Both the position numbers and the translations under genes were made by a program. This document shows positions 2-32,858 of a DNA stretch of 64,000 nt, one piece after another (the first letter of the stretch is position 1; the number at the start of each line of letters is the position of its first letter). The stretch comes from an uncultured Planctomycetaceae bacterium. Lineage in GTDB: Bacteria; Planctomycetota; UBA8742; UBA2392. The stretch spans positions 310 through 64,309 of the forward strand of contig CAZZBH010000004.1 of NCBI GenBank assembly GCA_964652605.1, given 5' to 3'. The notes under the pieces are model-generated. The model searched no databases. It worked only from the letters and a program-made list of their open reading frames with translations, and was not told the DNA's origin.

Positions 2-1549
2 AAAGACCTCAATGACGTAAAGCAGCCCTTTGCGGTCAAGACCGAGGCGCGCACACTGGATGACGCTCTCAAGGGTGCGGACGTCTTTTACGGCCTCAGC
101 AGCAAGGGTGCGCTGAAGCCCGAAGCGCTCAAGACCATGGCCGACAACCCGATTGTATTCGCCATGGCAAACCCCGACCCGGAGATCGAGTACGACGTTG
201 CTCGCGCCACACGCGCCGACGTAATCCTGGCGACCGGCCGCAGCGACTACCCGAATCAGGTCAACAACGTGCTGGGCTTTCCCTTCATCTTTCGCGGCGC
301 ACTGGATACTCGCAGCACGGCGATCAACGAAGAAATGAAGGTAGCGGCTGCGATGGCGCTGGCGCGCCTTGCCAAAGCCGAAGTGCCCGACAGCGTGTCG
401 CGCGCCTATGGCGGCAAGCGCCTGAAGTTCGGCCCCGACTACCTGATTCCTACGCCTTTTGACCCGCGCGTGCTGTACTACGTCGCGCCCGCGGTGGCAA
501 AGGCCGCCATGGAAAGCGGCGTCGCCCGCGTGCAGCTTGACCTTGACGAGTATCGCGAACGCCTGCGGCGCCAGACCGAGCCAGGCCGCGCCGTCATGGG
601 CGTGGCCATTCACAAGGCGCAGGAGCTGCGCAAGCGGCTTGCGTTGCCCGATGGCTCCGATGCCCGCGTGCTCGCTGTCGCGCGCCAGATCATCCGGGAC
701 GGCGTCGCGCTGCCCGTGCTCATCGGCGACGAGTCGAAAATTCGCGCCGCAATGAAGGGCTTTGAAACCGCCCAGTACGAAGTGGTTGACCCCAAAGCGC
801 CGCCCGACAACCCGCAACTGCACCAGCGCTGGAAAGAGCGCACGGGCATGTTCACCGAGTACGAAGAGATGGACAGCTACGCGCTCGCGGCCCTGATGAC
901 CGACCTGAGCCTGGTGGACGGCATGCTCAGCGCCGCTGACCGCATTTACCGCGAGACTGTGCCCAGCGTGCTGCGATTTGTCGGCAAGCGAAACCGCACA
1001 CGCCGCGTCATCGGCATGCACATCATGGTGCTCAAGAACCGGCTGCTGTTCTTTGCCGACACAACCCTGAACGTAAACCCCGAAGCCGAGGTGCTTGCCG
1101 ACTGCGGCCGCCTGTGCGCAGAGGCGGTGCAGGCGCTGGGCATCACGCCGCGCGTGGCATTCATCAGCTACAACAACTTCGGCGCCGCCAACCACCCGGA
1201 GTCAGAGAAAGCCCGCGTTGCGTGCGAGATGTTCAGGCAACTTTGCCCAGGGGTAGAAGCCATCGGCGAAGTCCAGGCCGATATCGCCATCAGCCCTGAC
1301 GAGTTCCGCAATGTGCTTGACGCTGAGCGCTGGCCCCAGCCGGCCAACGTGCTGATATTCCCCAATCTGGATTCCGCCAACGCGGCGTTCCGGCTTGTCC
1401 GGGTGGCGGGTGAAGCCACTGCGCTTGGCCCGCTGCTGCTGGGCCTGAAGCGCCCCGCCAACGTGATGCCACGCGGCAGCACAGTGCAGGACGCAGTAGC
1501 CATGGCGGCGGTAACGCTGGCAATGCCCGAGCTGGCGGGCGAGGCTTAG
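2..1549 (+). CDS. maeB: NADP-dependent malic enzyme (MaeB type), 5' end outside window
   Basis: Frame 2 is open from the window edge (KDLNDVKQPFAV...). Malic-enzyme NAD(P)-domain motifs VFAMANPDPEI and NNVLGFPFIFRGALD are followed by a ~320-aa phosphate-acetyltransferase-like C-terminal domain typical of MaeB. Confidence 0.9.
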   Translation, partial: KDLNDVKQPFAVKTEARTLDDALKGADVFYGLSSKGALKPEALKTMADNPIVFAMANPDPEIEYDVARATRADVILATGRSDYPNQVNNVLGFPFIFRGALDTRSTAINEEMKVAAAMALARLAKAEVPDSVSRAYGGKRLKFGPDYLIPTPFDPRVLYYVAPAVAKAAMESGVARVQLDLDEYRERLRRQTEPGRAVMGVAIHKAQELRKRLALPDGSDARVLAVARQIIRDGVALPVLIGDESKIRAAMKGFETAQYEVVDPKAPPDNPQLHQRWKERTGMFTEYEEMDSYALAALMTDLSLVDGMLSAADRIYRETVPSVLRFVGKRNRTRRVIGMHIMVLKNRLLFFADTTLNVNPEAEVLADCGRLCAEAVQALGITPRVAFISYNNFGAANHPESEKARVACEMFRQLCPGVEAIGEVQADIAISPDEFRNVLDAERWPQPANVLIFPNLDSANAAFRLVRVAGEATALGPLLLGLKRPANVMPRGSTVQDAVAMAAVTLAMPELAGEA

Positions 1550-1743
1550 GATCGCGCGGCAGTTCGCACGGTTCGCATGCGCGCGCAGTGACGCCGCTAG
1601 CGGGTGGCTGTTAAGCGAGGCGGGCGCCGCTTTCGCGACGCCCCACCTGTGTCGGGCCGAAGAAATGCCTGCCCCCCCATAACAGCAAGCACGTCCCTTT
1701 ACCGGCCCTTAATTCGTTCTGCGGGGGGTGAGGTATAGATTGT

Positions 1744-2532
1744 TTATCCACGACTTTCACCCATTTTTCCCGAACTTTCTTTCGGTCGCTTGGGCTGCAG
1801 TGCAAGCCTTGTCACACCCAGCAGGATCAGCACTCCGAACGCGGCCGTCAGTGCTCCTTGTGGCACCGCGTACGCCAGCGCGACACCACCAATCGCCGCG
1901 AGCGCCGCCACCGGTGTCACTGTGAGTACAAGCTTTCGGTCCACGTTTCCCGCACGCCAGTGCAGCCATGCCCCCACCAGGCTGGTCGGCAGAATCATTG
2001 CCAGGCTGGTCGCCCGCGCGGCCGTAAACTGCTCGCCGTACAACGCAAACCCGATGGCCAATGCAGGCACGGCAACCACGCCGCCGCCCAGGCCGAACAG
2101 CGCCGACACCACACCGGCGATCAGCCCGATTGTCAGCAGAAACAGCGCGTGGCTGGGATGCGACAGCTCCGGCGCGGATTCAAACAGCGCCGGCAACTCC
2201 GGCCACAGGCCCAGCATGCGCGCTGCAGCCAGAGTCATCACCACACAGAACGCGAGACGAAACGGCTTCTCCGGCAGCGCTCGATGAATCCGCTTGCCAA
2301 CAAACGCGCCGGCCACTGCACCGGTCGCCAGAAGCGCCGCCACCCACCCGTGCACGTCGCCTGGCTCGCGCACGAGCTGCGCCACAAGACCAACGGCAAT
2401 CACGGCAACGATCACGGCCAGGCTTGTGCCGGCCGCGCGTTTGACATCCATGATTCCAAGCATGGCAAACAGCGGCACCATCACCAAGCCACCACCGACA
2501 CCAAGCATGGTGCTGATCAAGCCGGCAAGCAT
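1744..2532 (-). CDS. TauE/SafE family sulfite/anion exporter membrane protein
   Basis: Polytopic membrane protein with the duplicated GxGGG motif (MLGVGGGLVMVPL and LFGLGGGVVAVPAL). The longest ORF (to 2757) overlaps the neighbouring gene with low-complexity sequence, so ATG 2532 was chosen; the start is uncertain. Confidence 0.75.
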   Translation of the reverse strand: MLAGLISTMLGVGGGLVMVPLFAMLGIMDVKRAAGTSLAVIVAVIAVGLVAQLVREPGDVHGWVAALLATGAVAGAFVGKRIHRALPEKPFRLAFCVVMTLAAARMLGLWPELPALFESAPELSHPSHALFLLTIGLIAGVVSALFGLGGGVVAVPALAIGFALYGEQFTAARATSLAMILPTSLVGAWLHWRAGNVDRKLVLTVTPVAALAAIGGVALAYAVPQGALTAAFGVLILLGVTRLALQPKRPKESSGKMGESRG

Positions 2533-22168: not shown

Positions 22169-23740
22169 ATGCCACCCGGCGCTAACGGTTCCATCCCCGG
22201 CGTCCCGGAGTCTGACCTCTTCCGCATCATCGTGGAAGCCGCGCCAAACGCCATGGTGATGATCAACTCCGACGGCCGCGTTGTCCTTGTCAACGGGCAG
22301 ACTGAGCGCATGTTCGGATGGCCCCGCGCCGAGCTGATCGGCCAGCCGGTCGAGGTGCTGCTCAACCAGTCGCTGCGCCAGCGCCACGTCGAGTACCGCG
22401 ACGCCTACATGCACAGGCCCGAGGTGCGCGCGATGGGTGCCGGCCGCGAGCTGCTTGGCATGCGAAAAGACGGCACCGAGTTTCCTGTCGAGATTGGCTT
22501 GAACCCGATTCCCACAGACCAGGGCCTGTACGTGCTGGCGGCTGTGGTGGATATCAGCGAGCGCCGACGCTCGGAAAAGGTGCGAGAAGAACTTGAGTCG
22601 CGGGTGCGGCACTCGCAGAAGCTGGAAAGCCTGGGTGTGCTGGCCGGCGGCATCGCGCATGACTTCAACAACCTGCTGTCGGCGATTCTGGGCAATACCG
22701 AAATCGCAATCGGCAAGCTGGATGACTCGTCGCCGGCGCTGCCGTACCTGCGCCGCATGCTGTCGGCAACCCGCCGTGCCGCCGAGCTTACCCGGCAGAT
22801 GCTCGCATATTCGGGGCGCGGGCGATTTGAGCTCAAGCGCATCAACGCATCCAATGCCGTGCACGAGATGGGTGAGCTGCTGCGGGTGTCGCTGTCGAAG
22901 AAGGCACGGGTCAAGTTCGACTTTCAGCGCGACCTGCCGGACATTGAGGTGGACCCGGCACAGTTCAACCAGGTCGTGCTCAACATGATCACTAACGCCA
23001 ATGAGGCGCTTGGCGAAGGCGATGGGCAGATCACCATCCGCACGGGAGTCATGCAAGCCGACGCCGACTTCCTGTCCACGTGCGTTGGTGTGGAGGACCT
23101 TGCCCCGGGCCGGTTCGTGTTCATCGAAGTCGGCGACACTGGCTGCGGCATGGATGAAGCCACCCGCACGCGAATCTTTGACCCGTTCTACACAACGAAG
23201 TTCACCGGGCGTGGACTGGGCCTTTCGGCGGTGATCGGCATCGTGCGCGGACATCGCGGCGCCATCAGTGTCGAGTCAGAAGTCGGCAAGGGCACCCGTA
23301 TGCGCGTTCTGCTGCCTGCACTGGCAGAAGCCGACATGCCCGAAGAAGAAACCGATCGAAAAAGCTGGAGCGGCAGCGGGCTGGTGCTGGTCGCCGACGA
23401 CGAAGACCTGGTGCGCGGCGTGGCTTGCGCGCAGCTTGAGTCGATGGGCTTTCTGACCGTAGAGGCCGAGAATGGCGCACAAGCCGTAGAGGCCGCCGAA
23501 AAACACAAGGGCAAGCTGGCACTGGCGATGCTTGACCTGACGATGCCGGAACTCGACGGCGACGAGGCCGCCCGGCGCATCCTGGCACAGACGCCCGAGC
23601 TGCCGATCGTGCTCGCCAGCGGCTACAGCGCGCAGGACCTCTCCAAACGACTGCGCGATCAACCCAACGTAGTGATGCTCGCCAAGCCCTACAGCATGGC
23701 CGAGCTGCAAGCCGCCCTGCGCCGCGCGTTGCGTGAGTAG
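22169..23740 (+). CDS. Hybrid sensor histidine kinase / response regulator (PAS-HisKA-HATPase-REC)
   Basis: PAS (IIVEAAPNAMVMINSDGRVVLVN), H-box GIAHDFNNLLSAI, N-box NMITNANEAL, G-boxes DTGCGMD / GRGLGLS, and a receiver domain VLVADDEDLV...AMLDLTMPELDG. Confidence 0.9.
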   Translation: MPPGANGSIPGVPESDLFRIIVEAAPNAMVMINSDGRVVLVNGQTERMFGWPRAELIGQPVEVLLNQSLRQRHVEYRDAYMHRPEVRAMGAGRELLGMRKDGTEFPVEIGLNPIPTDQGLYVLAAVVDISERRRSEKVREELESRVRHSQKLESLGVLAGGIAHDFNNLLSAILGNTEIAIGKLDDSSPALPYLRRMLSATRRAAELTRQMLAYSGRGRFELKRINASNAVHEMGELLRVSLSKKARVKFDFQRDLPDIEVDPAQFNQVVLNMITNANEALGEGDGQITIRTGVMQADADFLSTCVGVEDLAPGRFVFIEVGDTGCGMDEATRTRIFDPFYTTKFTGRGLGLSAVIGIVRGHRGAISVESEVGKGTRMRVLLPALAEADMPEEETDRKSWSGSGLVLVADDEDLVRGVACAQLESMGFLTVEAENGAQAVEAAEKHKGKLALAMLDLTMPELDGDEAARRILAQTPELPIVLASGYSAQDLSKRLRDQPNVVMLAKPYSMAELQAALRRALRE

Positions 23741-23760
23741 GCCGGCCGACGCGGGATTCA

Positions 23761-23883
23761 CCACAGAGTCACGGAGTCACGGAGAACTGCAACGGCAGAT
23801 TCAATCCGGTTCGTGGCTGACGCAGCTCTGTCTCTGCACATGGGCGAACCTGACTGCACTTGCGTCTCTCCGTGATTCTGTGG
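23761..23883. repeat. ~123-bp intergenic element with terminal inverted repeats CCACAGARTCACGGAGA
   Basis: 23761 CCACAGAGTCACGGAGTCACGGAGAA ... TCTCCGTGATTCTGTGG 23883. A CTTCGCG-type subrepeat tract follows at 23931..23965. Confidence 0.6.
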
Positions 23884-24018
23884 TGCAAACTGGATTTGCC
23901 AGCAGCGCCACAGATGCCGTTCTTCGCGTCTTCGCCACCTTCGCGCCTTCGCGTTAAGGCATTTCCGGAGTGGACAAACAAGCCGCCCACCGGAACAATC
24001 CATCCAGAAAGGCAGCCC

Positions 24019-25467
24019 ATGAAATCCGAATGCGCTGAAGCCATTGATGCCGCGACATCCCTTGGCGCCTCCTACGCCGACGTGCGCATCATTGAGTACG
24101 CGCGCGAATCCATCTACCTGCGCAACGGACAGCCGAGCAACCTGATGAACCATCGCAGTCTCGGCGCGGGCATCCGCGTGATCGCCGGCGGCGCGTGGGG
24201 GTTCGCCAGCACCAACCAGGTCACGCCCGCCAGCCTAAAGGAGACTGCCCAGCGAGCAGTCGCCATCGCGCGCGCGTCGGCACAGGTGAAAAAGCAGGAC
24301 GTGCGCCTGGCACCCAAACAGCCGGTCGAAGACATCTGGTGCACGCCCTTCACCATCGACCCGTTCAGGGTGCCGCTGGAAGAAAAGCTCGGCTTGCTCT
24401 CGCGCATCGACGAGGTGCTGCGCCGCAAACCGGAAATCAAGGTCGCCAGCAGCGGCATGCAGTTCGCCCGCGAAAAACAGTGGTACATGGACAATGAAGG
24501 CAGCTTTATCGTCCAGGACCTGGTGCGGTCGGGGGCTGGCTACTCCGCGACAGCCGTCGGCAACGGCGAGGTACAGATCCGCAGCTATCCGCAATCCTGG
24601 GGCGGCAACCACAAGTGCATGGGGTACGAGATCGTCCACTCGTACGATTTGCTCGGCAATGCCGAGCGCATCCGCGACGAGGCAGTCGCCCTGCTCACCG
24701 CGCCCGAGTGCCCCAGCGGCCGCATGGACTTAATACTCGACGGGCCGCAGCTTGCCTTGCAGATCCACGAAAGCGTCGGCCACGCGAACGAGCTCGACCG
24801 CGTGCTGGGTTTCGAAGCCAACTACGCCGGCCGCAGCTTCATGCTGCCGGGGCTGCACAACAAGGGGTTCAAGTACGGCAGCGAGATCGTGAACCTGGTT
24901 GCGGACTGCACGGTGCCGGGCGGGTTGAGCACGTTCGGGTACGACGACGACGGCGTGCGCGCCCAGCGCTTTCACGTGGTGCAGAACGGCATGCACACCA
25001 ACTGGTTCACTACCCGCGAGACCGCGCCCATGGTGGATCAGCCGGCCAGCAACGCCTGCAACCGCGCGGACGGGTTTTCAAATATCCCGATCACGCGCAT
25101 CCCCAACCTCTCGCTGATGCCGGGCGAGTGGACGCTGGAAGATTTGATAGCGGACACCAAAGACGGCATCCTGATGGAGGTCAACAAAAGCTGGAGTATC
25201 GACCAGATGCGGCTGAACTTCCAGTTCGGGTGCGAGATCGGGCGTGTGATCAAGAACGGCAAGATCACGGGCATAGTGCGCAACCCCAACTACCAGGGCA
25301 ACACCCCCGAGTTCTGGGGAAGCACCGACGCCATCTGCAACCAGGACCACTGGGACCTGTGGGGAGTAATCAACTGCGGAAAAGGCCAACCCGGCCAAAC
25401 CGCAGAAATGAGCCACGGCGGCGCACCAACGAGGTTCCGGGGTGTTGAAGTCGGGATACGGGGCTAG
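24019..25467 (+). CDS. tldD: TldD-family metalloprotease
   Basis: Starts MKSECAEAIDAATSLGASYADVRI and carries the TldD HExxxH motif (HESVGHANELD). The C-terminal GGAPTRFRGVEVG is typical of TldD/PmbA. Confidence 0.9.
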   Translation: MKSECAEAIDAATSLGASYADVRIIEYARESIYLRNGQPSNLMNHRSLGAGIRVIAGGAWGFASTNQVTPASLKETAQRAVAIARASAQVKKQDVRLAPKQPVEDIWCTPFTIDPFRVPLEEKLGLLSRIDEVLRRKPEIKVASSGMQFAREKQWYMDNEGSFIVQDLVRSGAGYSATAVGNGEVQIRSYPQSWGGNHKCMGYEIVHSYDLLGNAERIRDEAVALLTAPECPSGRMDLILDGPQLALQIHESVGHANELDRVLGFEANYAGRSFMLPGLHNKGFKYGSEIVNLVADCTVPGGLSTFGYDDDGVRAQRFHVVQNGMHTNWFTTRETAPMVDQPASNACNRADGFSNIPITRIPNLSLMPGEWTLEDLIADTKDGILMEVNKSWSIDQMRLNFQFGCEIGRVIKNGKITGIVRNPNYQGNTPEFWGSTDAICNQDHWDLWGVINCGKGQPGQTAEMSHGGAPTRFRGVEVGIRG

Positions 25468-25476
25468 CAACTATTC

Positions 25477-26262
25477 ATGGGACGCGGCTACTACGAACTG
25501 ATTGAAGCACCAAGCGACGAACTTGGCGGGAAGTCCGGCCCCAAGGCCATCTTTACGGCGCGGTTCATCGGGAAGTGGGACGAGCCTCAGCGACCGTACA
25601 CCGTCGCCAATGAGACAATCGCCGCGGCGATTGGAACCGCGTTGGGGTTGCCCATAGCACCCGGGATTACGGACGAGATTGGTGGGAAGCCTTATTTCCT
25701 CAGCCAAGAGTTGCACAAGCCTGGCGACAAGCAAGTTGGGCCGGAGGGCGGAGCTCCTGCAGTGGAGAAGCTTCTAAGCAACAACCAGCTTCTGGTACAT
25801 GGAGCGATCATCTTTGATCTCTACATCGCCAACAATGACCGCGGCTTCCTGCCTGACCGCCGCAACATCGCGGTAGATGCCGATGGTCGACTGTTTCTCT
25901 ACGATCACGGCAACTGCTGCTTCTACAGGAATCGCGATTCGGAAGGAATTGTCGCTGGTGTCAGTAGGTTGGAGGCAGTTGAGGCGTCTCTGGATGCCAT
26001 GTTTGACATGGGCAGCAAACCCAACATGTACTGGGAGCTACTGACCGATATCAAGATGGCAGACTTCTGGTTGAACCGGCTGGAGATGATACCCGATTTC
26101 ATGTTGGACGCGTTTGTGAGCATGATCCCATCTGCAGTGGACCCGCCCAATGAACACGAGCGCAAAGCTCTGGCGGAGTTTCTTAAGAAGAGGCGGCACT
26201 ATCTGCGAGAGCACATCTTGGCCGACAAGAAGCACTTCCCCATGCTGGGAGGACGAGAATGA
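25477..26262 (+). CDS. Atypical kinase-like protein (HipA / PI3K-PI4K-like catalytic motifs)
   Basis: FDLYIANNDRGFLPDRRNIAVD (catalytic-loop-like D...N) and LFLYDHGNC (DxG-like metal site). GC is ~50-55% against a ~65% background. The gene starts 9 nt after the tldD stop. Confidence 0.7.
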   Translation: MGRGYYELIEAPSDELGGKSGPKAIFTARFIGKWDEPQRPYTVANETIAAAIGTALGLPIAPGITDEIGGKPYFLSQELHKPGDKQVGPEGGAPAVEKLLSNNQLLVHGAIIFDLYIANNDRGFLPDRRNIAVDADGRLFLYDHGNCCFYRNRDSEGIVAGVSRLEAVEASLDAMFDMGSKPNMYWELLTDIKMADFWLNRLEMIPDFMLDAFVSMIPSAVDPPNEHERKALAEFLKKRRHYLREHILADKKHFPMLGGRE

Positions 26263-27113
26263 CCCAACGAGACTTCACATATGCGTTGCTTCGATATGTG
26301 CCAGATCCAGAACGTATGGAACCTCTGAACTTTGGTGTCGTTGTCCAAGGCACACAAGGTATGAGGCTCAAGCTGAACACGTACTTTGGTCAGCTGGGCA
26401 TGGTTGACGCGAAGGTGTATCGGAAGTGGCGCGAGTTTCTGGAAGAAGAAGTAGAAGGTGAACAGAAATCGATCTTCAGGCCGTCCCGCGACTCGGCGGA
26501 CTTCTGGAAATATCTCCGGTCACTAACCGGCGACACTGTCATAATGACTTCGCCACTCAAGATGGCTACATCGGACGAAGTCGAACTGGAGCAGGTCGTA
26601 GTGCGGTTATACGACAGGCTGGTGAACCGCAAATCCTCAGACAAAGACACTTCGCGGGGGCGTCCAGGCAATCCCACATTCGAGTTCAGGCGTATTCGCG
26701 ATGACAGAAAATTGGACAAGCGTGGTTTGCTGAGAGGGCATGGGGTGCGGAGTAGCGGCGGCGAAATTCTTTGGACACCGTACCGTGCATTCGAGAACGG
26801 ACACCGTGTAGCTATCAATAAGGTTGAGGTCAATCGAGACCCGGAGTTAACCAATGCAGAGATTGGGACTGCGAAGTATGTGGCTAGCATTGGAGAGCAA
26901 ATTCGCAAGCTCGGCGTACGCTGGGTCATAATGTTCGATCCACTCGACGAACCCCTTCCCGGGCAGGATGCAGAGGCGTTTCGGGACATGAAGGATGCGC
27001 TGGAGTCTTCGCGAAGTCATGCGTTGGCAGCAAAAGCCAACGTTCTATCCAGTGCAGCCGAGGTACAGGACTTTGTGGTGGACATTGAAGGCAGCCTCCA
27101 ACCGATGGCATGA
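26259..27113 (+). CDS. DUF3037-like protein (N-terminal) with uncharacterised C-terminal extension
   Basis: ATGA overlap with the upstream kinase gene. The N-terminus FTYALLRYVPDPERMEPLNFGVVVQG matches my recollection of the DUF3037 signature. GC is low. Confidence 0.7.
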   Translation: MTQRDFTYALLRYVPDPERMEPLNFGVVVQGTQGMRLKLNTYFGQLGMVDAKVYRKWREFLEEEVEGEQKSIFRPSRDSADFWKYLRSLTGDTVIMTSPLKMATSDEVELEQVVVRLYDRLVNRKSSDKDTSRGRPGNPTFEFRRIRDDRKLDKRGLLRGHGVRSSGGEILWTPYRAFENGHRVAINKVEVNRDPELTNAEIGTAKYVASIGEQIRKLGVRWVIMFDPLDEPLPGQDAEAFRDMKDALESSRSHALAAKANVLSSAAEVQDFVVDIEGSLQPMA

Positions 27114-27179
27114 GGTCCAATGCCCAGGGCGCTCGCTTACGCTTCGCGTTCGGACTTGTGGATTGCTATCCTTGGCTTC

Positions 27180-28352
27180 ATGAAAACTCTTGCGCTGGTA
27201 CTTCTGGTGGCTTTTGGGTCTGGGCTTTGGGCTGGCGAGACGCTTCCGGCTGGGCCGCCTTGGGAGCGTGATTTCATGAAGGCGCATGCCTCGGCGCTTG
27301 AGGCTGGCAAGCCGATCTTCCTTTACTTCACCAAGACCTACTGACCGCACTGTGTTCCCGTGGAACGGGAACTCCTGCCCAACGCCGAGCTGAAGCCGGT
27401 GTATGAGGACATTGTCTGGGTGTTCGTCTACAACGACTTCAAAGGCGGCGAGGCGGACCTGGCGGCGGACCGCGTCCGCAAGCGCTTCAACGTGTCCACC
27501 TGGCCGCAACTGCTGATCGCGGACCCCAACACGCTCGAAGTCATCGGCGACACCGGGCGCAGCGTGAAGACCTTCCTGCCCGCGGTCAGCAAAGCCAAGG
27601 CCGCAGTCAGCAAGCTCGACAAGAAGGCGCAGAAAGAAGTGCGCGAGAAGCTCGAAGAGGCTGAGGCGTTCGCCGCACGGCTCCAAACCAAGCCCAACAA
27701 GCGCGACCTGCAGAAAGCGTTGGAGCACGAGGATGTAGTGGTGCTTGCCGTCGCGGTCGAGTACGCGGTCAAGGAGGACCCGGCGCTGCTGTACGAGTCG
27801 GCACTCAAGCTGCTCGACAACACCTCAGACCAGATTCGCACCGCCGTCTGCGAAGCGATTGCCAAAGCAGGCGACAAGGCGAAGCTGGATGACGACCTGC
27901 GCGTGCGGCTTGAAGGGCTGGTGCGCGAGCCGAAGGATAGCCGCAACCCCAACGTGCTGCGCATCCGCGCGGTCGGCGCGCTGGCCCGCTGCGGCAACGC
28001 GGATTCGCTGGACGTGCTGAAGCCGTTTGCCACCGCGAAAGACGTTTACAACGGGCTGACCTCGACGGCAGTGAACGCGGTCGGCACGATCGGCCTGCGC
28101 GAGAAGGCGGGACGGAATGACGCCATCGCGATCCTGGTGGACAGCTTTCCTGCGATTGCGGCGGATGACCCCAAGCGCGCCGAGTCTTTCGCCCGCGTGG
28201 CGCCGCAGCTTGCGCGCACGGTGCACAAGCACCTCGAAGCGCTGACCCGCGCCAAGGTGGCGTTCCCTGCCAAGTACGACGAAGACGGCCGCAACAAGAT
28301 GATCGAGGCCTTCAGCAAGTACGTGAAAGATTCGACGACGGCAGGCGACTGA
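27180..28352 (+). CDS. Secreted thioredoxin-fold (Thioredoxin_7-like) + HEAT-repeat protein; predicted selenoprotein with Sec (UGA) at 27342..27344
   Basis: ORFs 27120..27344 and 27360..28352 share one frame. The junction reads FLYFTKTY-U-PHC-VPVEREL at the WCxxC position, with a hairpin at 27354..27372. Signal peptide MKTLALVLLVAFGSGLWAGE from ATG 27180; HEAT-like repeats lie C-terminal. Confidence 0.8.
27354..27372 (+). promoter_or_regulatory. Candidate bacterial SECIS hairpin
   Basis: GUUCCCG-UGGAA-CGGGAAC is a perfect 7-bp stem with a 5-nt G-containing loop, starting 9 nt after UGA 27342..27344. Confidence 0.65.
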
Positions 28353-28502
28353 TCGCCGGTTGCTGGCTGGCGCACGGCGCAATGCAATACGTGTGCGACC
28401 GCCTTACCGGCAGCGTGTTCGCACCCCAATGCGCACGAGGCTCAGCGAGAACGCCTGGGAATCGATGCACCGGTTTGAGTCGGGCGACCGCTCAAGCGGA
28501 GT

Positions 28503-30359
28503 TCAAGGCGCGAAGTGCAGCACAACGGCGGGATCCCTGGTACTGGCAACCAAAAACGGGTTTTGCTCGGCAGCGGCTTGGGGGCCGCACAGGCGGGCGC
28601 ACTGGTCGCGGCGCTGCTGCTGTTGCGCGGCGGTGAGCGGCACGTCACTGTGCCTGTAGATCACACGCCCTAGTTGCTCAGGGCTCATGGTCATGCCCGT
28701 GAAGCGCACGCCGGGGCGGTCAAGCCGGCCCGTAATCTCGGCCTGCACCGGTGTATCGCCTGCACTTGCCATCAGCATCCCGCGCAGCGTGGCGTGGCGC
28801 GGGTGCACGTCGCGATGCATTTCAATGCGCGCGTCCACACTTCCCGTCAGGCCCAGAAACAGCAATTCGCCGTCCTTCATTTCCAGGCTGCCCTCCGCGC
28901 GCACATTGCCCGAGCGATTCTCCGGGCGCTTGGTGAAGTCACCCCGCAACTTGCCGCGCGCGACGCCGCGCACCGGGTCGCAGTTGACTTCAAGCCGTCG
29001 CACGTCGGCTTGCCACTCCAGCGTCAGGGCCGGAAACTGCTCTCCCAGCATCACGATGTTCGGCGTCAGGTCAGACAGGCCCGTGCGGTTCGCGCGCACC
29101 CAACTGATCGGCTCATTCAGTGTTGCCTCTCGCACAGTCGCGTCGAAGGTGCCGCGCAGGTCATCGACCGGCCCGTTGAGCACCAGCTCGCCGGCGCCGC
29201 GGGCCTTGCACCGCGGGTTGGTGGACAGTGTGCAGTCGTCCGCGCGCAGTGTCAGGTCACTGAAGCTCCAGGCTGTGCCGCCTTGCAGCCGCAGGTCGCC
29301 TGACAGGTCAGCCTCCGGCAACTCAAACGCGCGCGTTGCATCAAGGCCCATCACCAGCGGGTAGTAGTAGCTGACACCAGACAGCTCACAACTCAGTTCA
29401 AGCCGCAGGTCGTTCAGCTCACCGCTCACGCGGCAAGTGCCACGCAGCGCGCCTTCAAGCACGTCCACCTTGCGATAGCGGCCCCACAACTCCTTCAGCT
29501 CAAGGTGGTCGAGAGTGCACAGCAGCGAGCTTTCACCGCCCGGTGTCAGCGAGCCCATGAGCGCGCCCTGCACCAAACCGTCGGTCTGAAACGCAATGTT
29601 GGTGACGACTTCGAGCCCCGATCCCGCCTGCCGCACCGCCACGCCGCCCATCATCGTCAGCTCATGTCGCACGCCGAGCAGCGTGACGCTACCGCGAGAC
29701 AGCCCAAGGCTGAACTCGTCGCGAAGGCCGCCCAACGAACCCTCGGCGTGGCTGAACTCAAATTCCGCTGCGGTGTCGTCGCCCTTCAGCGCAATGCTTC
29801 CGTCCCGCACGCTGATCACGACCGGTGAGGCGGATTCGCGCGGGCGGGCAAGAAAGCGCTCAAGCTTTCCCCCGGCTGGATCAAACTCCGCCGTCAGGCC
29901 CTGCACAGCTACCATGGCTGGGCCGGTGCGCAGAAACAGGCCCAGGCCCGGATTGATCTCAAGCGTGCGCGCCTCGACGTGGCCGACGTCGTCGGGCAAC
30001 TGTACGCTGACGCCGGTAAACAGCAGCTTTCCGGTCGCGGCGTCACCGCTGAAGCCGGTGTACTCGATCGGCCCGCCCAGCGCGGCTTCAAGGCTCTGCA
30101 ATGCCTGCGAGCGGCCCCAGTCAAGCCACGGGTTCGCGCCCGCTGCTGAGGCAAGCCAGCAGGCGGCGATCCCGCCAAAGGCGGCATAAGCCGTCGGTCG
30201 CAGGCGTTTGAACCACGGCAACGCAGCCGGCACCACGATCACCGCCGCGAACGCGCCGAATACAAAGGCCAGCGGCGCAAGCAGCAATCCGGCTGCCACC
30301 GGCACTACCGGCAGCTTTCGTTTGGCCGGGGTTTCGGATGTCGTTGTGCGGTCTTCCAT
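28503..30359 (-). CDS. Hypothetical membrane-anchored beta-rich protein (AsmA/TamB-like by composition)
   Basis: 618-aa ORF with N-terminal TM helices (VVPVAAGLLLAPLAFVFGAFAAVIVV) followed by long repetitive beta-like segments. The family assignment is only an impression. Confidence 0.6.
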   Translation of the reverse strand: MEDRTTTSETPAKRKLPVVPVAAGLLLAPLAFVFGAFAAVIVVPAALPWFKRLRPTAYAAFGGIAACWLASAAGANPWLDWGRSQALQSLEAALGGPIEYTGFSGDAATGKLLFTGVSVQLPDDVGHVEARTLEINPGLGLFLRTGPAMVAVQGLTAEFDPAGGKLERFLARPRESASPVVISVRDGSIALKGDDTAAEFEFSHAEGSLGGLRDEFSLGLSRGSVTLLGVRHELTMMGGVAVRQAGSGLEVVTNIAFQTDGLVQGALMGSLTPGGESSLLCTLDHLELKELWGRYRKVDVLEGALRGTCRVSGELNDLRLELSCELSGVSYYYPLVMGLDATRAFELPEADLSGDLRLQGGTAWSFSDLTLRADDCTLSTNPRCKARGAGELVLNGPVDDLRGTFDATVREATLNEPISWVRANRTGLSDLTPNIVMLGEQFPALTLEWQADVRRLEVNCDPVRGVARGKLRGDFTKRPENRSGNVRAEGSLEMKDGELLFLGLTGSVDARIEMHRDVHPRHATLRGMLMASAGDTPVQAEITGRLDRPGVRFTGMTMSPEQLGRVIYRHSDVPLTAAQQQQRRDQCARLCGPQAAAEQNPFLVASTRDPAVVLHFAP

Positions 30360-30449
30360 ACGCTGCTACAAGCGGGCCTCTGCAAGTGCTCTGATACGTT
30401 TTGGCGGACGATTATGACCCTGTACACCGGCAACAACAGCACCAAGATC

Positions 30450-32858
30450 ATGGCACAGTCGGTGCCGAATTCGCTGCCTCTGCTGCCGCTCGTTTCGGTT
30501 GTGGTGTTTCCCTACAACGTCGCAAGCTTTTCCGTGCACCGGCAGCGCAATATCAACCTGCTCAATGCGCTGCCCACCGCCGACAACCTGATTTCGGTGG
30601 GCATCCAGCGCGACGCCAACCGCGACAGCATCAGCGGCCTGGAAGACCTGCACCCGGTGGGTGTCAGCGCGCGACTGATTCACAAGATGTACCTGCCGGA
30701 TGGCACGATGCAGGCGGCAGTGCAGGGCCTGACGCGAGTGCGCTTCAAGCGGCTGAAGGGCCTGGACCCGTTCATCGTGGCTGAGGTCAGCCCCGCGCAC
30801 ACAGAAGGCAACGACGACGACTCACCGGCGATGCAGAAGCTGATCGTGGAGGCGCTGGAAAAGTTCGAGACGCTGGTCAAGCTTGACCCCAACTATTCCA
30901 ACGAGCTCGTGAACGTTCTGAAAATGAACATCAAGGGCGCGGGCCGCTTTGCCGACCTGCTGGCCACCTACATGCAGCTGCCCGTCTCAACCAAGGCCGA
31001 AATTCTGGCCGAGCTCGACAACCGCAAGCGCCTTGAGTTGGTCATCCGGCTGATCGAAGACGAGATTGCGCGCCTTGCCGTTGACCGCGAGGTCAAGCAG
31101 CGCACACAGGTCGCGATTGAAAAATCCCAGCGCGAGTACTTTCTGCGACAGCAGCTCAAGGCCATCCGCACCGAGCTTGGCGACGTCGAAGGGACCGAAG
31201 CCGAAGTCGAGCGCCTGAAGCAGCGACTCGAGGAAGCCAAACTGCCCGAGCACGCCCACAAAGAGTGCCTTGCCGAGATCGAGCGCCTCAATCTGATCAG
31301 CGAAGCAAGCGCCGAGTACAACGTTGTGCACACGCACATTGACTGGTTGCTGAACCTGCCGTGGCACAAGACCAGCCAGGACAACCTCGACCTGAAGCAC
31401 GCGCGCGGGATTCTTGACGAAGACCACTTCGGGCTGGATGAGGTCAAAGACCGCATCATCGAGTTTCTGGCGGTGCTCAAGCTGAAGAATGAAATGAAAG
31501 GTCCGATCCTGTGCCTGGTCGGCCCGCCGGGCGTGGGCAAGACCAGCCTGGGCCGCAGCGTCGGCCGCGCCATCGGGCGCGAGTTCCAGCGCATCAGCCT
31601 GGGCGGCCTGTCCGACGACAGCGAGATCATGGGCCACCGCCGCACCTACGTCGGCGCCATGCCCGGCCGCATCATCCAGTCGCTGAAGAAAGCCGGCACC
31701 GCCAACCCCATCATTATGCTGGATGAAGTGGACAAGCTTTCAAGCAGCCTGCGCGGCGACCCCGCTGCGGCACTGCTTGAAGTCCTGGACCCGGAGCAGA
31801 ATAACGCCTTCACCGATCGCTACCTGGATGTGCCATACGACCTGAGCAAGACGCTGTTCATCTGCACAGCCAACATGCTCGACACCATTCCCGGCCCGCT
31901 GCGCGACCGCATGGAAGTCATCCGCCTGGCCGGCTACACATTGGAAGAAAAAGAGCAGATCGCGCAGACCTACATTATCCCGCGCCAGATCGAGCAGGCG
32001 GTCCTCAAGAAAGGCAAAGTACGTATCCACAAGGCAACGATCCGCGAGATTGTGCGCGGGTACACACGCGAAGCCGGCCTGCGCAACTTTGAGCGGCGCA
32101 TCGCGGCCATCTGCCGAAAAATCGCCACCAAAGTAGCCGGCGAGGAGATGGCACAGGATGAGCCCGTAAGCGTAAAGGCCGAGGACGTCGCCGAGTATCT
32201 TGGGCCAAGGCTGTGGTTGCCGGAAGGCCCCACGCGCAAGCCGGAGGTCGGCATTGTCAACGGCTTGGCCTGGACCAGCATGGGCGGCGACACGCTGCTG
32301 ATCGAAAGCACGCGCTACAAGGGCAAGGGCGGCATCCACGTCACCGGCAGCCTGGGCGACGTGATGAAAGAAAGCGTGACCACCGCGTTGTCGTGGGTGC
32401 GCAGCAACGCCGCGGCGCTGAAAGTCGATGTCGAAGACTTCACCAAGTACGACGTACACGTGCACTTTCCCGAAGGCGCCGTGCCCAAGGACGGGCCAAG
32501 TGCCGGCGTAAGCATCACCACGGCGTTGGTCAGCCTGTTCACCGGCAAGCCAGTACGCGGCGACATAGCGATGACGGGCGAAGTCACGCTGCGCGGAAAG
32601 GTGCTGGCCGTCGGCGGCATCAAGGAAAAGGTGCTGGCGGCCTATCGCAGCGGCCTGAAGCTGGTGTTGCTGCCCAAACTGAATGAAAAGGACCTGCGCG
32701 ACATCCCGGAAGAAGCCCGCAAGGCACTGAAAATCAAGCTCACCGAAGACGTGCGCGAGAACATCAACGCGGCCATAGTAGGCCTGAACGTACCCCTGCC
32801 CAAAGAACAAACCAAACGCCCCAGAAGCCAGAAACGCCGCAAGCCCGAGGAAGAGTAA
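30450..32858 (+). CDS. lon: ATP-dependent Lon protease
   Basis: LON N-domain ([13 protein letters not shown]), Walker [10 protein letters not shown], Walker [10 protein letters not shown], protease Ser [10 protein letters not shown] and Lys GGIKEKV. The start is 30450 (or 30414). Confidence 0.95.

Follow-up and report, generated by a model that had tools for sequence, protein, structure and literature searches.

What is the role of the two low-GC genes that directly follow a tldD-like metalloprotease gene in this Planctomycetota genome? The window, i.e., the whole stretch of 64 kb that was analyzed, carries on the + strand (as do all features mentioned below) an open reading frame for a HipA_2-type kinase of 261 aa (gene 1, 25477..26262) and one for a two-domain DUF3037 protein of 284 aa (gene 2, 26259..27113). 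The start codon of gene 2 overlaps with the stop codon of gene 1 in the sequence ATGA (26259..26262), which implies translational coupling of the kinase and its partner. An earlier note on this DNA had read the coordinates, the lengths and the overlap in the same way. We consider it probable that the cassette is a two-gene anti-phage system of toxin-antitoxin type belonging to the HipA_2-kinase + DUF3037 family.

The GC content of the cassette is 54.7%, compared to a mean of 62.8% for the 64-kb window, and returns to the background level by about 27350. The lowest values for any stretch of 1,637 nt in the window are found here (minimum 0.542 at 25592); among all sliding segments of this length (standard deviation 0.023), 0.5% are as low as the cassette, and the dip is well outside chance expectation. 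The low GC had been described before on the basis of two counts that are exact (29/60 in 26281..26340, 39/60 in 25381..25440); the dip is real, but the general figures given with it (about 50% in a background of about 65%) made the contrast slightly too high. The foreign composition proposed at the same time is also evident at third codon positions, with GC3 values of 0.68 for gene 1, 0.58 for gene 2 and 0.85 for tldD in the window, and the same contrast (0.58-0.68 for the cassette vs 0.85-0.90) is found in all four genomes.

Gene 1 encodes a short Ser/Thr protein kinase of the HipA_2 type that is predicted to be catalytically competent. According to its AF2 model (pLDDT 81.6, pTM 0.82), the protein adopts a bilobal kinase fold similar to that of HipA, CtkA and HipT. 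Indeed, the top matches in a Foldseek search against the PDB were CtkA (3akl; E 6e-6, TM 0.52), HipA (4pu5, 3tpd, 2wiu) and HipT (7vkb, 8ezr), with query-normalised TM scores mostly of 0.4-0.53. The match of gene 1 itself to Pfam HipA_2 (PF20613; 17.7 bits, E 2e-3) is confined to aa 111-154 and lies below the gathering threshold of 27. A search with the profile of the gene 1 family (A1) retrieved 599 proteins at E<1e-3, and HipA_2 was matched by 45 of the 60 sampled full-length relatives (best E 6e-13), so that transitive homology assigns the family to HipA_2. Furthermore, there are a weak and partial match to PADLOC PDC-M66A (E 1e-3, aa 110-146) and a match to the phage family phrog_3162 (E 7e-5); among PDB sequences, the profiles of the two cassette proteins had no meaningful matches.

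The catalytic core, recognised by its conservation, comprises aa 113-146 (25813..25914) and reads FDLYIANN-D121-R...N130...LFLY-D143-HGN. In the 60 relatives, N119, D121, R122 and D143 do not vary, and N130 is conserved to at least 90%; K33 and E46 are either invariant or conserved to at least 90%. We assign to these residues, by alignment, the putative roles of ATP-binding Lys (K33), helix-C Glu (E46), catalytic Asp (D121), catalytic-loop Asn (N130) and Mg-binding Asp (D143). An hmmsearch with a broader profile (A4) aligned D121 with D139 of DS-6A (in NADR) and YDHG with IDHN of the same protein; a comparison of A1 with the DS-6A sequence alone by hhalign yielded only a 34-residue N-lobe stretch with very low probability. 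The motifs FDLYIANNDRG (aa 113), RNIAVD (aa 129) and LFLYDHGNC (aa 139), from which the earlier note had suspected a kinase, are all present, apart from a spacer between NNDRG and RNIAVD that has 5 residues and not 7, and fold, profile and conserved catalytic residues bear the suspicion out. Its statement that gene 1 has no P-loop overlooked a conserved Gly-rich, putatively ATP-phosphate-binding loop, L-G-G-K-S-G (aa 16-21, 25522..25539, identified by conservation, with GGKSG at aa 17-21). The pattern in relatives is L-G-G-x-[S/T]-G; conservation of at least 90% is reached by G18 and G21 in the A1 alignment and by G18 in the A4 alignment of 60 sequences. Position 20 is S or T in all close relatives, and S20 may, by analogy with S150 of HipA, be regarded as a candidate autophosphorylation site. 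Gene 1 is the predicted toxin/effector, i.e., the HipA of a HipAD-like system.

Gene 2 contains the motif FTYALLRYVPDPERMEPLNFGVVV at aa 6 and matches Pfam DUF3037 (PF11236) with 29.5 bits (E 1e-6; cut-off 22.6) over aa 8-122 (26280..26624; profile positions 1-118 of 118). This domain aligns with residues 6-135 of DS-6B, and gene 2 further matches the phage family phrog_5137 (E 6e-9) and, weakly and partially, PADLOC PDC-M66B (E 2e-4, aa 5-132). Its AF2 model (pLDDT 85.8) comprises two domains. No PDB structure was matched by Foldseek with E<1e-3; unnamed phage proteins match the structure over its full length, with E-values of 4e-11 and 5e-8. As had been anticipated together with the DUF3037 assignment, the C-terminal part of ~150 aa has no counterpart in Pfam. 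The elements of this clade-specific C-terminal domain, delimited by secondary structure (aa 139-277, 26673..27089), follow one another as alpha-beta-beta-beta-alpha-beta-alpha-beta-alpha; the first helix is basic, with 9 K/R among aa 139-165. The domain is kept in all relatives of the clade (49-229 bits with the dufC HMM). Beyond aa ~135, no sequence or profile alignment of gene 2 to PDC-M66B, phrog_5137 or DS-6B was obtained. The C-terminal domains of gene 2 and DS-6B/PDC-M66B are not detectably homologous, and therefore their regulation may differ. The weak fold matches of the domain include nucleases of the PD-(D/E)xK type and a DUF1828 protein (E 4.5e-3), by which a common fold of these C-terminal domains is possible. 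An active PD-(D/E)xK nuclease was considered and rejected: only K188 and E190 are invariant, and their order misfits D...(D/E)xK. Position 187 is N in the window and D in most relatives. We predict that gene 2 is a HipD-like antitoxin/regulator.

Pairs of HipA-like and DUF3037 genes are already known as the PADLOC phage-defence candidate PDC-M66, DefensePredictor DS-6 and HipAD (the latter name was reportedly given to DS-6 by Brenes and Laub in 2025), and the cassette belongs to this family as a divergent representative from a Planctomycete. The view of the earlier note that no such pair had been characterised experimentally is thus outdated. DS-6, consisting of DS-6A (WP_000389051.1) and DS-6B (WP_000210934.1), protects E. 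coli, and its defence is lost in the DS-6A D139A mutant (PMC13092281). There is a strong association between DUF3037 and HipA-like genes, and a HipA/DUF3037 pair located next to Retron-Sda1 acts as a stand-alone defence; deletion of HipA abolishes the defence against Bas51, and deletion of DUF3037 is toxic (PMC12548924).

The cassette resembles DS-6 in that a gene for a HipA_2-type kinase of ~250 aa is followed, with an overlap of 4 nt, by a DUF3037 gene of ~280 aa; the catalytic Asp is conserved (D139 of DS-6A, D121 of gene 1), and both DS-6B and gene 2 have an N-terminal DUF3037 domain and then a second domain. However, the sequence similarity is very low. The HipA_2 score is 258 bits for DS-6A vs 17.7 for gene 1, and PADLOC models PDC-M66A and PDC-M66B are matched by DS-6A and DS-6B with E-values of 6e-15 and 4e-16 compared to 1e-3 and 2e-4 here. 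DS-6B aligns with PDC-M66B from end to end, and its C-terminal domain is DUF1829-like according to HHpred, whereas that of gene 2 aligns to neither. Moreover, DS-6 comes from a prophage of Pseudomonadota, and the cassette from a chromosomal tldD hotspot of Planctomycetota. Both cassette genes do match the paired PDC-M66 models, although weakly and partially, and the locus would probably escape PADLOC calling, as judged without running PADLOC. In contrast to the Retron-Sda1-linked pair, there is neither a retron RT nor an ncRNA near the cassette (zero matches in an Rfam search of 23500-28600). HipBA (E. coli, Shewanella) and HipBST share with the cassette the kinase core fold and the logic of the catalytic loop and, if the analogy holds, the neutralisation of a toxin kinase by a co-encoded protein. 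Unlike HipBA, the cassette has no upstream gene for a HipB-type HTH protein, the gene order is reversed with the toxin first, and gene 1 (261 aa) lacks the N-terminal part of ~180 aa of HipA (~440 aa); unlike HipBST, no HipS-like match was found for gene 2 with Foldseek.

That the two families are obligate neighbours is supported by 15 of 15 independent loci whose downstream flank can be read: in each, the kinase gene is followed by an overlapping or close DUF3037 gene. The association had been mentioned in the earlier note, and PMC12548924 agrees. The overlap of 4 nt recurs in four of our loci (L001, L002, L004, L006) and in E. coli DS-6. Defence genes are reportedly embedded in type I restriction-modification operons (Payne et al. 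in 2024), and the pair occupies such hsdR-hsdM loci in two cases, between hsdR and hsdM in L040 and after the 3' end of hsdR in L037. Annotated phages and plasmids yielded no match to gene 2 in a tblastn search, and a viral-contig scan with profile A3 revealed no copies of the clade to which the cassette belongs.

In the window, the left neighbour of the pair is a core tldD-like metalloprotease gene (24019..25467; 482 aa from the ATG at 24019, HESVGH motif, Pfam PmbA_TldD_1st/2nd/3rd). Its TAG stop (25465..25467) is separated from the kinase ATG by 9 nt (25468..25476), a distance already noticed earlier and confirmed by the coordinates. This left junction contains no terminator hairpin, which implies read-through transcription from tldD. 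The kinase ATG is located 2-11 nt past the tldD stop in four kinase-bearing genomes, and GC-rich hairpins are present directly 3' of the tldD stop in cassette-free relatives. The right junction to the next gene comprises 66 nt (27114..27179). Scans for promoters and terminators at the cassette gave no signal above shuffled sequence, nor was an operator found, and therefore autoregulation from an own promoter in the style of HipB is not evident. Inspection of the junctions by eye revealed no direct repeats or att-like sequences.

Each of about 20 related species has an orthologous tldD; one of them carries the pair, and 19 lack it. Others among these relatives have in the slot ApeA, Mrr-nSTAND3/PDC-S73, a PDC-M32B-like gene, a SUKH protein and other cargo, and two loci (L009 and L024) are 99% identical except that one has the pair exactly where the other has ApeA. 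The cassette proteins are 50-77% identical among relatives, compared to 81-88% for TldD (dN/dS 0.15-0.22); dS is saturated for the cassette and 0.54-1.06 for tldD, a contrast that owes part of its size to the strong codon bias of tldD, and the gene trees are incongruent. The unlike dS and GC3 values argue against co-evolution of tldD and the cassette. The hotspot has tldD as its conserved anchor on the left, outside the defence system itself; the adjacency of the pair to tldD is positional, and the tldD 3' flank is an integrase-free, swap-prone variable defence hotspot in this Planctomycetota clade. We know of no earlier description of this hotspot in Planctomycetota. Defence hotspots flanked by core genes are a general concept, and the slot behind tldD, with its interchangeable low-GC defence cargo and exact swaps, fits it; here, however, the cargo appears to be fused to tldD transcription, and no integrase or flanking repeats were seen. 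The genes flanking this region in the window (histidine kinase, Trx-HEAT, TamB-like, Lon) are near tldD in no relative, so that an empty site with exact flanks could not be reconstructed. The earlier note had placed the cassette in the slot normally taken by pmbA/tldE and had found this gene missing from the window. No PmbA-like ORF is indeed present in the 64 kb; the slot itself exists in other phyla, e.g., in an Anaerolineae locus (L032) where tldD is followed after 16 nt by a PmbA-type gene, but not in the Planctomycetota clade, with pmbA downstream of tldD in none of about 20 relatives. In L024, a pmbA/tldE paralogue is located about 4 kb upstream of tldD.

The reading as a toxin-antitoxin or phage-defence module, suggested already in the earlier note, agrees with the defence by homologous pairs and with the contexts of the loci. 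The architecture would be identical if the pair were a plain addiction-type toxin-antitoxin module, selfish or stabilising the hotspot, with no dedicated anti-phage role here. The toxicity of DUF3037 loss in a homologue (PMC12548924) would fit this as well, and the patchy distribution and saturated dS of the pair are as expected for selfish mobile alleles. Nevertheless, we regard this explanation as rather unlikely: the phage defence of homologous pairs depends on the kinase, and the embedding in type I restriction-modification loci, together with a slot common to ApeA, nSTAND and PDC genes, is the signature of defence cargo.

A tighter involvement of TldD could be proposed from the gene order tldD-kinase-DUF3037, which is kept in five loci from four lineages (the window, L001, L002, L009, L036) with gaps of 2-11 nt and no hairpin, the other flanks being different. 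In such a three-gene operon, TldD would free the kinase, for example by degrading an unfolded peptide signal or the DUF3037 antitoxin. E. coli TldD/E does degrade CcdA41, a disordered fragment of an antitoxin, and tld mutants are resistant to CcdB (PMC5810440); the TldD of the window retains the HExxxH motif. We downgraded this possibility and consider it improbable, as TldD is absent from at least 10 other loci of the kinase-DUF3037 family, the core tldD gene does without the pair in nearly all related species, its slot accepts unrelated defence cargo, and tldD and the cassette differ in dS and GC3. Equally doubtful to us is a protease-gated HipAD subtype, in which the disordered linker or the clade-specific C-terminal domain of the DUF3037 antitoxin would be the TldD substrate, and the threshold for triggering would depend on protease activity or peptide load.

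A non-toxic signalling kinase or a small-molecule/lipid kinase (PI3K/PI4K- or APH-like) that is paired with a regulator and has no role in conflict is very improbable. Pfam PI3_PI4_kinase is weakly matched by 8 of the 60 relatives, and gene 1 has a marginal match to ABC1, but the top hits in structure comparison are without exception protein kinases of the HipA family, the relatives overwhelmingly belong to HipA_2, the homologues act in defence, and the contexts are defence loci. That the cassette is a decaying, non-functional remnant of a horizontal acquisition, as low GC, fast protein divergence relative to TldD and the lack of a detected own promoter might suggest, has hardly any probability in view of ORFs that are intact at every locus examined, catalytic residues invariant in 60 relatives, a kinase dN/dS of about 0.04-0.10 (two usable pairs) and models that both fold confidently.

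For the two-gene anti-phage system that we favour, the following mechanism can be envisaged. Gene 2, translationally coupled to gene 1, would be made in step with it and keep the kinase inactive by direct binding, most likely via the DUF3037 domain, while its basic, clade-specific C-terminal domain probably serves to bind nucleic acid or to sense the trigger. Upon phage infection, the inhibition would be lost, and the freed kinase could phosphorylate an essential target, by analogy with HipA, whose target is GltX. Growth or translation would then halt and the infection be aborted. The pair would be accessory cargo of the integrase-free hotspot 3' of tldD, transcribed by read-through from tldD, and appears to have been acquired through allele exchange, not inherited vertically together with tldD.

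The cassette leaves the current picture of the field unchanged, but it extends a newly validated defence family of HipA_2 kinases and DUF3037 proteins into Planctomycetota, with a divergent kinase clade that falls under the Pfam gathering cut-off and is probably missed by PADLOC too. If the wiring to TldD were true, it would represent a new protease-gated HipAD subtype with a new sensor domain. Comparison of gene 2 with DS-6B could separate the kinase-neutralising from the infection-sensing parts of DUF3037 proteins. Behind tldD, whole systems (ApeA, STAND NTPase, HipAD-like) interchange between genomes that are 99% identical, and this hotspot is a useful site for mining further Planctomycete defence genes.

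The cassette consists of two plus-strand open reading frames, gene 1 (25477..26262, 261 aa) and gene 2 (26259..27113, 284 aa), and an ATGA at 26259..26262 is common to the stop of the former and the start of the latter. Immediately upstream lies a tldD-like gene whose last nucleotide is 25467, leaving a gap of 9 nt before the kinase ATG. Over its full length the cassette has a GC content of 54.7%, compared with 62.8% for the window on average, and no other 1.6-kb segment of the 64 kb ranks lower (~3.5 SD under the mean; equally low GC in just 0.5% of same-length windows), with GC3 values of 0.68 for gene 1, 0.58 for gene 2 and 0.85 for tldD. The dip described in the earlier note is real and its local counts (29/60 and 39/60) were exact on recount, but its figures of ~50% and ~65% are slightly overstated for the whole cassette and the window.

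In profile searches gene 1 stays below threshold for Pfam HipA_2 (17.7 bits, cut-off 27), PADLOC PDC-M66A (E 1e-3) and phrog_3162 (E 7e-5). It has only 13 close homologues among 5.8 billion clusters, all of them environmental sequences; the two with a taxonomic label are both from Planctomycetes MAGs. A profile made from these homologues retrieved 599 proteins from a library of 1.84 billion representatives, and a full-length alignment of 60 kinases was assembled from gene 1, five close homologues and 54 of the profile matches (Pfam matches: HipA_2 45/60, PI3_PI4_kinase 8/60, HipA_C 5/60). The AF2 model of gene 1 is usable (pLDDT 81.6, pTM 0.82), and its best PDB matches are without exception HipA-family protein kinases, i.e. 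CtkA (3akl; E 6e-6, TM 0.52), which ranks first, HipA (4pu5, 3tpd, 2wiu) and HipT (7vkb, 8ezr). Residues N119, D121, R122, D143 and R239 are invariant in the 60 relatives, and G18, K33, N45, E46 and N130 are conserved in at least 90% of them. With a Gly-rich loop, ATP-binding Lys, helix-C Glu, catalytic Asp, loop Asn and Mg-binding Asp (roles assigned by alignment), gene 1 carries the full residue set expected of an active kinase, and activity is predicted. Fold and catalytic residues thus bear out the HipA-type identity first proposed from sequence. The motifs quoted at that time are present as well, but the spacer between NNDRG and RNIAVD has 5 residues rather than 7, and in the statement that a P-loop is lacking the Gly-rich loop GGKSG (aa 17-21), which is conserved, was overlooked.

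The assignment of gene 2 to DUF3037 also stands, as aa 8-122 pass the Pfam threshold (29.5 bits, cut-off 22.6); the N-terminal part matches PDC-M66B (E 2e-4) and phrog_5137 (E 6e-9) too. Its AF2 model (pLDDT 85.8) has two domains with a disordered linker (125-132) in between. The C-domain (139-277; element order alpha-beta-beta-beta-alpha-beta-alpha-beta-alpha) is kept in all relatives of the clade and begins with a strongly basic helix (9 K/R in aa 139-165). It has no match in Pfam, and the alignments to the ~280-position PDC-M66B and phrog_5137 profiles do not extend over it. Foldseek searches with the gene 2 model returned nothing with E under 1e-3 from the PDB, and full-length unnamed phage proteins from viral models (E 4e-11 and 5e-8); restriction-endonuclease-fold proteins (DUF2726, DUF1828, Vsr-like, ERCC4, arenavirus endonuclease) recur among the weaker viral matches. 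The conserved residues K188, E190 and D227 are at odds with a canonical PD-(D/E)xK site, and position 187, which is D in most relatives, is N in the window. The C-domain is therefore probably a binding or sensor domain rather than an enzyme.

A DUF3037 gene, overlapping or closely spaced, comes directly after the kinase gene in all 15 independent loci whose downstream flank could be read (the window, L001, L002, L009, L036, L004, L006, L008, L037-L041, L043 and L044), confirming the neighbourhood stated in the earlier note. In this count the duplicates L009/L010, L004/L005 and L006/L007 were merged, L036 and L009 possibly represent one species, and L042 and L045, cut off by contig ends, were left out. 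Two relatives with 45-48% kinase identity lie within type I restriction-modification genes: in L040 (1174..7093) the kinase begins 17 nt after the end of hsdR, and the DUF3037 gene is followed by one for an N6-methylase (hsdM); in L037 (13..1005) the kinase is preceded, at a distance of 19 nt, by the C-terminal coding end of hsdR (EcoEI_R_C).

Contrary to the earlier statement that no experimental characterisation of the pair was known, the system was characterised experimentally in 2025-2026. HipA-like and DUF3037 genes form the PADLOC candidate PDC-M66, DUF3037 being "strongly associated" with HipA-like genes; in an operon adjoining Retron-Sda1, HipA deletion abolished defence against phage Bas51 and DUF3037 deletion was toxic (PMC12548924). 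An E. coli pair was validated by DefensePredictor as DS-6 and renamed HipAD, with credit to Brenes & Laub 2025 (PMC13092281). It has the kinase first and a 4-nt overlap (PMC13092281 supplements), loses defence in the catalytic mutant D139A (PMC13092281 incl. supplements), and its two proteins are predicted by AF3 to form a complex (PMC13092281). The kinase DS-6A is a canonical HipA_2 protein (258 bits), and its partner DS-6B matches PDC-M66B over the full length. Our 60-sequence profile aligns DS-6A at 25.8 bits, placing D139 (NADR) on D121 of gene 1 (NNDR) and IDHN on YDHG, whereas the gene 2 profile aligns to DS-6B only within DUF3037 (residues 6-135). As architecture and active site are shared, while the C-domain cannot be related to that of DS-6B by sequence methods, the window pair is, at the level of sequence, a distant and divergent member of this known system.

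The toxin-antitoxin or phage-defence role suggested at first was judged correct, the homologues being kinase-dependent in defence and toxic without their partner. On the best-supported model, the window pair would be a toxin-antitoxin-type abortive-infection system. Both proteins would be made in translational coupling, and the DUF3037 protein would hold the HipA_2 kinase off, probably by direct binding; infection would free the potentially toxic kinase, which would phosphorylate an essential target so that growth stops. That the pair is instead a plain addiction module appears rather improbable.

A further possibility is that tldD and the pair form a functionally coupled three-gene operon. 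Indeed, the pair lies 2-11 nt after the tldD orthologue in all four closest relatives despite differing flanks, and TldD/E is known to degrade a CcdA41 antitoxin fragment (PMC5810440), which lends some plausibility. However, no TldD is found near the pair in more distant relatives (kinase 33-48% or DUF3037 protein ~30% identical), and a TldD-alignment scan of GTDB species representatives yielded orthologues of 80-88% identity in about 20 genomes of Planctomycetota, of which only one has the pair. Moreover, the segment 3' of tldD is variable and often low-GC, and can carry other cargo: ApeA (ApeA_NTD1 + HEPN_Apea; PDC-S58; L024 7459..8997), an 801-aa Mrr_cat + nSTAND3 protein (L031 4135..6540; PADLOC PDC-S73, E 3e-149), a PDC-M32B-like gene accompanied by two unknown ORFs (L014 7445..9215), a SUKH-1 (SMI1/KNR4) protein (L018 7453..7908), a DUF7689 gene together with two unknown small ORFs (L020 6632..8059) or an LRR protein (L025 7465..8331). 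In L009 and L024, both flanks are 99% identical up to precise breakpoints, the tldD stop codon on one side and the position directly after the DUF3037 stop on the other; the 1,638-nt pair (L009 5451..7088) is exactly replaced by the 1,539-nt ApeA segment, and the shared flank resumes at L009 7089 = L024 8998. Functional coupling to TldD is thus quite unlikely, and the slot 3' of tldD in Planctomycetota is a previously unremarked defence hotspot with mobile cargo.

The earlier view of this position as a pmbA slot applies to Anaerolineae L032, where a PmbA-type paralogue follows tldD by 16 nt, but to none of the Planctomycetota relatives; its absence from the 64-kb window was noted correctly. 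L024 does have a gene for a PmbA/TldE-like protein (461..1846, +), which scores 70 bits against a PmbA profile made from L032 and L029. As this gene is located ~4 kb upstream of tldD, the clade has a TldE partner, but not one adjoining tldD. A conserved 224-245-aa gene (cluster c26; no Pfam or PADLOC match) is located downstream of the cargo in L009 (7088..7798, overlapping the DUF3037 stop in a TAATG) and L024 (8970..9707); in L026 (7489..8163) it directly follows tldD after 40 nt, which may represent the 'empty site' state.

In the four tldD-linked genomes, pair GC3 is 0.58-0.68 beside 0.85-0.90 for tldD, and protein identity is 81-88% for TldD, 63-77% for the kinase and 50-71% for the DUF3037 protein. 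The gene trees are incongruent. By NG86, tldD has dS 0.54-1.06 (somewhat lowered by its codon bias) and dN/dS 0.15-0.22; for the cassette, dS has reached saturation (values above 3, or none calculable), and kinase dN/dS is 0.04-0.10 in the two usable comparisons. Even allowing for the codon bias, the dS contrast, the conflicting trees and the swap between L009 and L024 speak against simple vertical descent from one insertion and indicate that the cassettes are old, exchangeable alleles under purifying selection. That the pair has a kinase with no part in conflict is very improbable, and that it is a decaying remnant even less likely. GC-rich hairpins directly follow tldD in cassette-free genomes and are missing in kinase-bearing ones; as no promoter-like site was found for the cassette either, the pair is probably transcribed by read-through from tldD.

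The gene directly after the cassette (27180..28352, +; MKTLALVLL...KPIFLYFTKTY-[TGA]-PHCVPVEREL...) contains a TGA at 27342..27344 in frame with a HEAT-repeat ORF (27360..28352). If the TGA is translated as Cys or Sec, the continuous 390-aa protein matches Thioredoxin_7 across it (33 bits, cut-off 27), so that this codon would stand for the first residue of a CxxC motif. The TGA is followed 9 nt later by the start of an 8-bp hairpin (dG -20.9 kcal/mol, z -1.8); there is no tRNA-Sec in the 64-kb window and no Rfam match. The product is regarded as a candidate selenocysteine (UxxC) thioredoxin-HEAT protein, the alternatives being a pseudogene or sequencing error. A Lon protease gene (30414..32858, +) is situated ~5 kb 3' of tldD; tld genes have been noted to lie frequently close to lon (PMC5810440). 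An apparent hybrid histidine kinase/response regulator gene (22169..23740, +; judged by translation) and a gene for a 618-aa protein with a sub-threshold TamB match (28503..30359, -; E 7e-4) occur near tldD in none of the relatives, so none of the other sampled genomes shares the local gene order of the window.

The locus is of modest interest for its clade-specific C-terminal partner domain and for the tldD-flanking defence hotspot of Planctomycetota. Several of the genes that occupy this slot in L031, L014, L018, L020 and L025 are uncharacterised, which makes them potential new defence genes.
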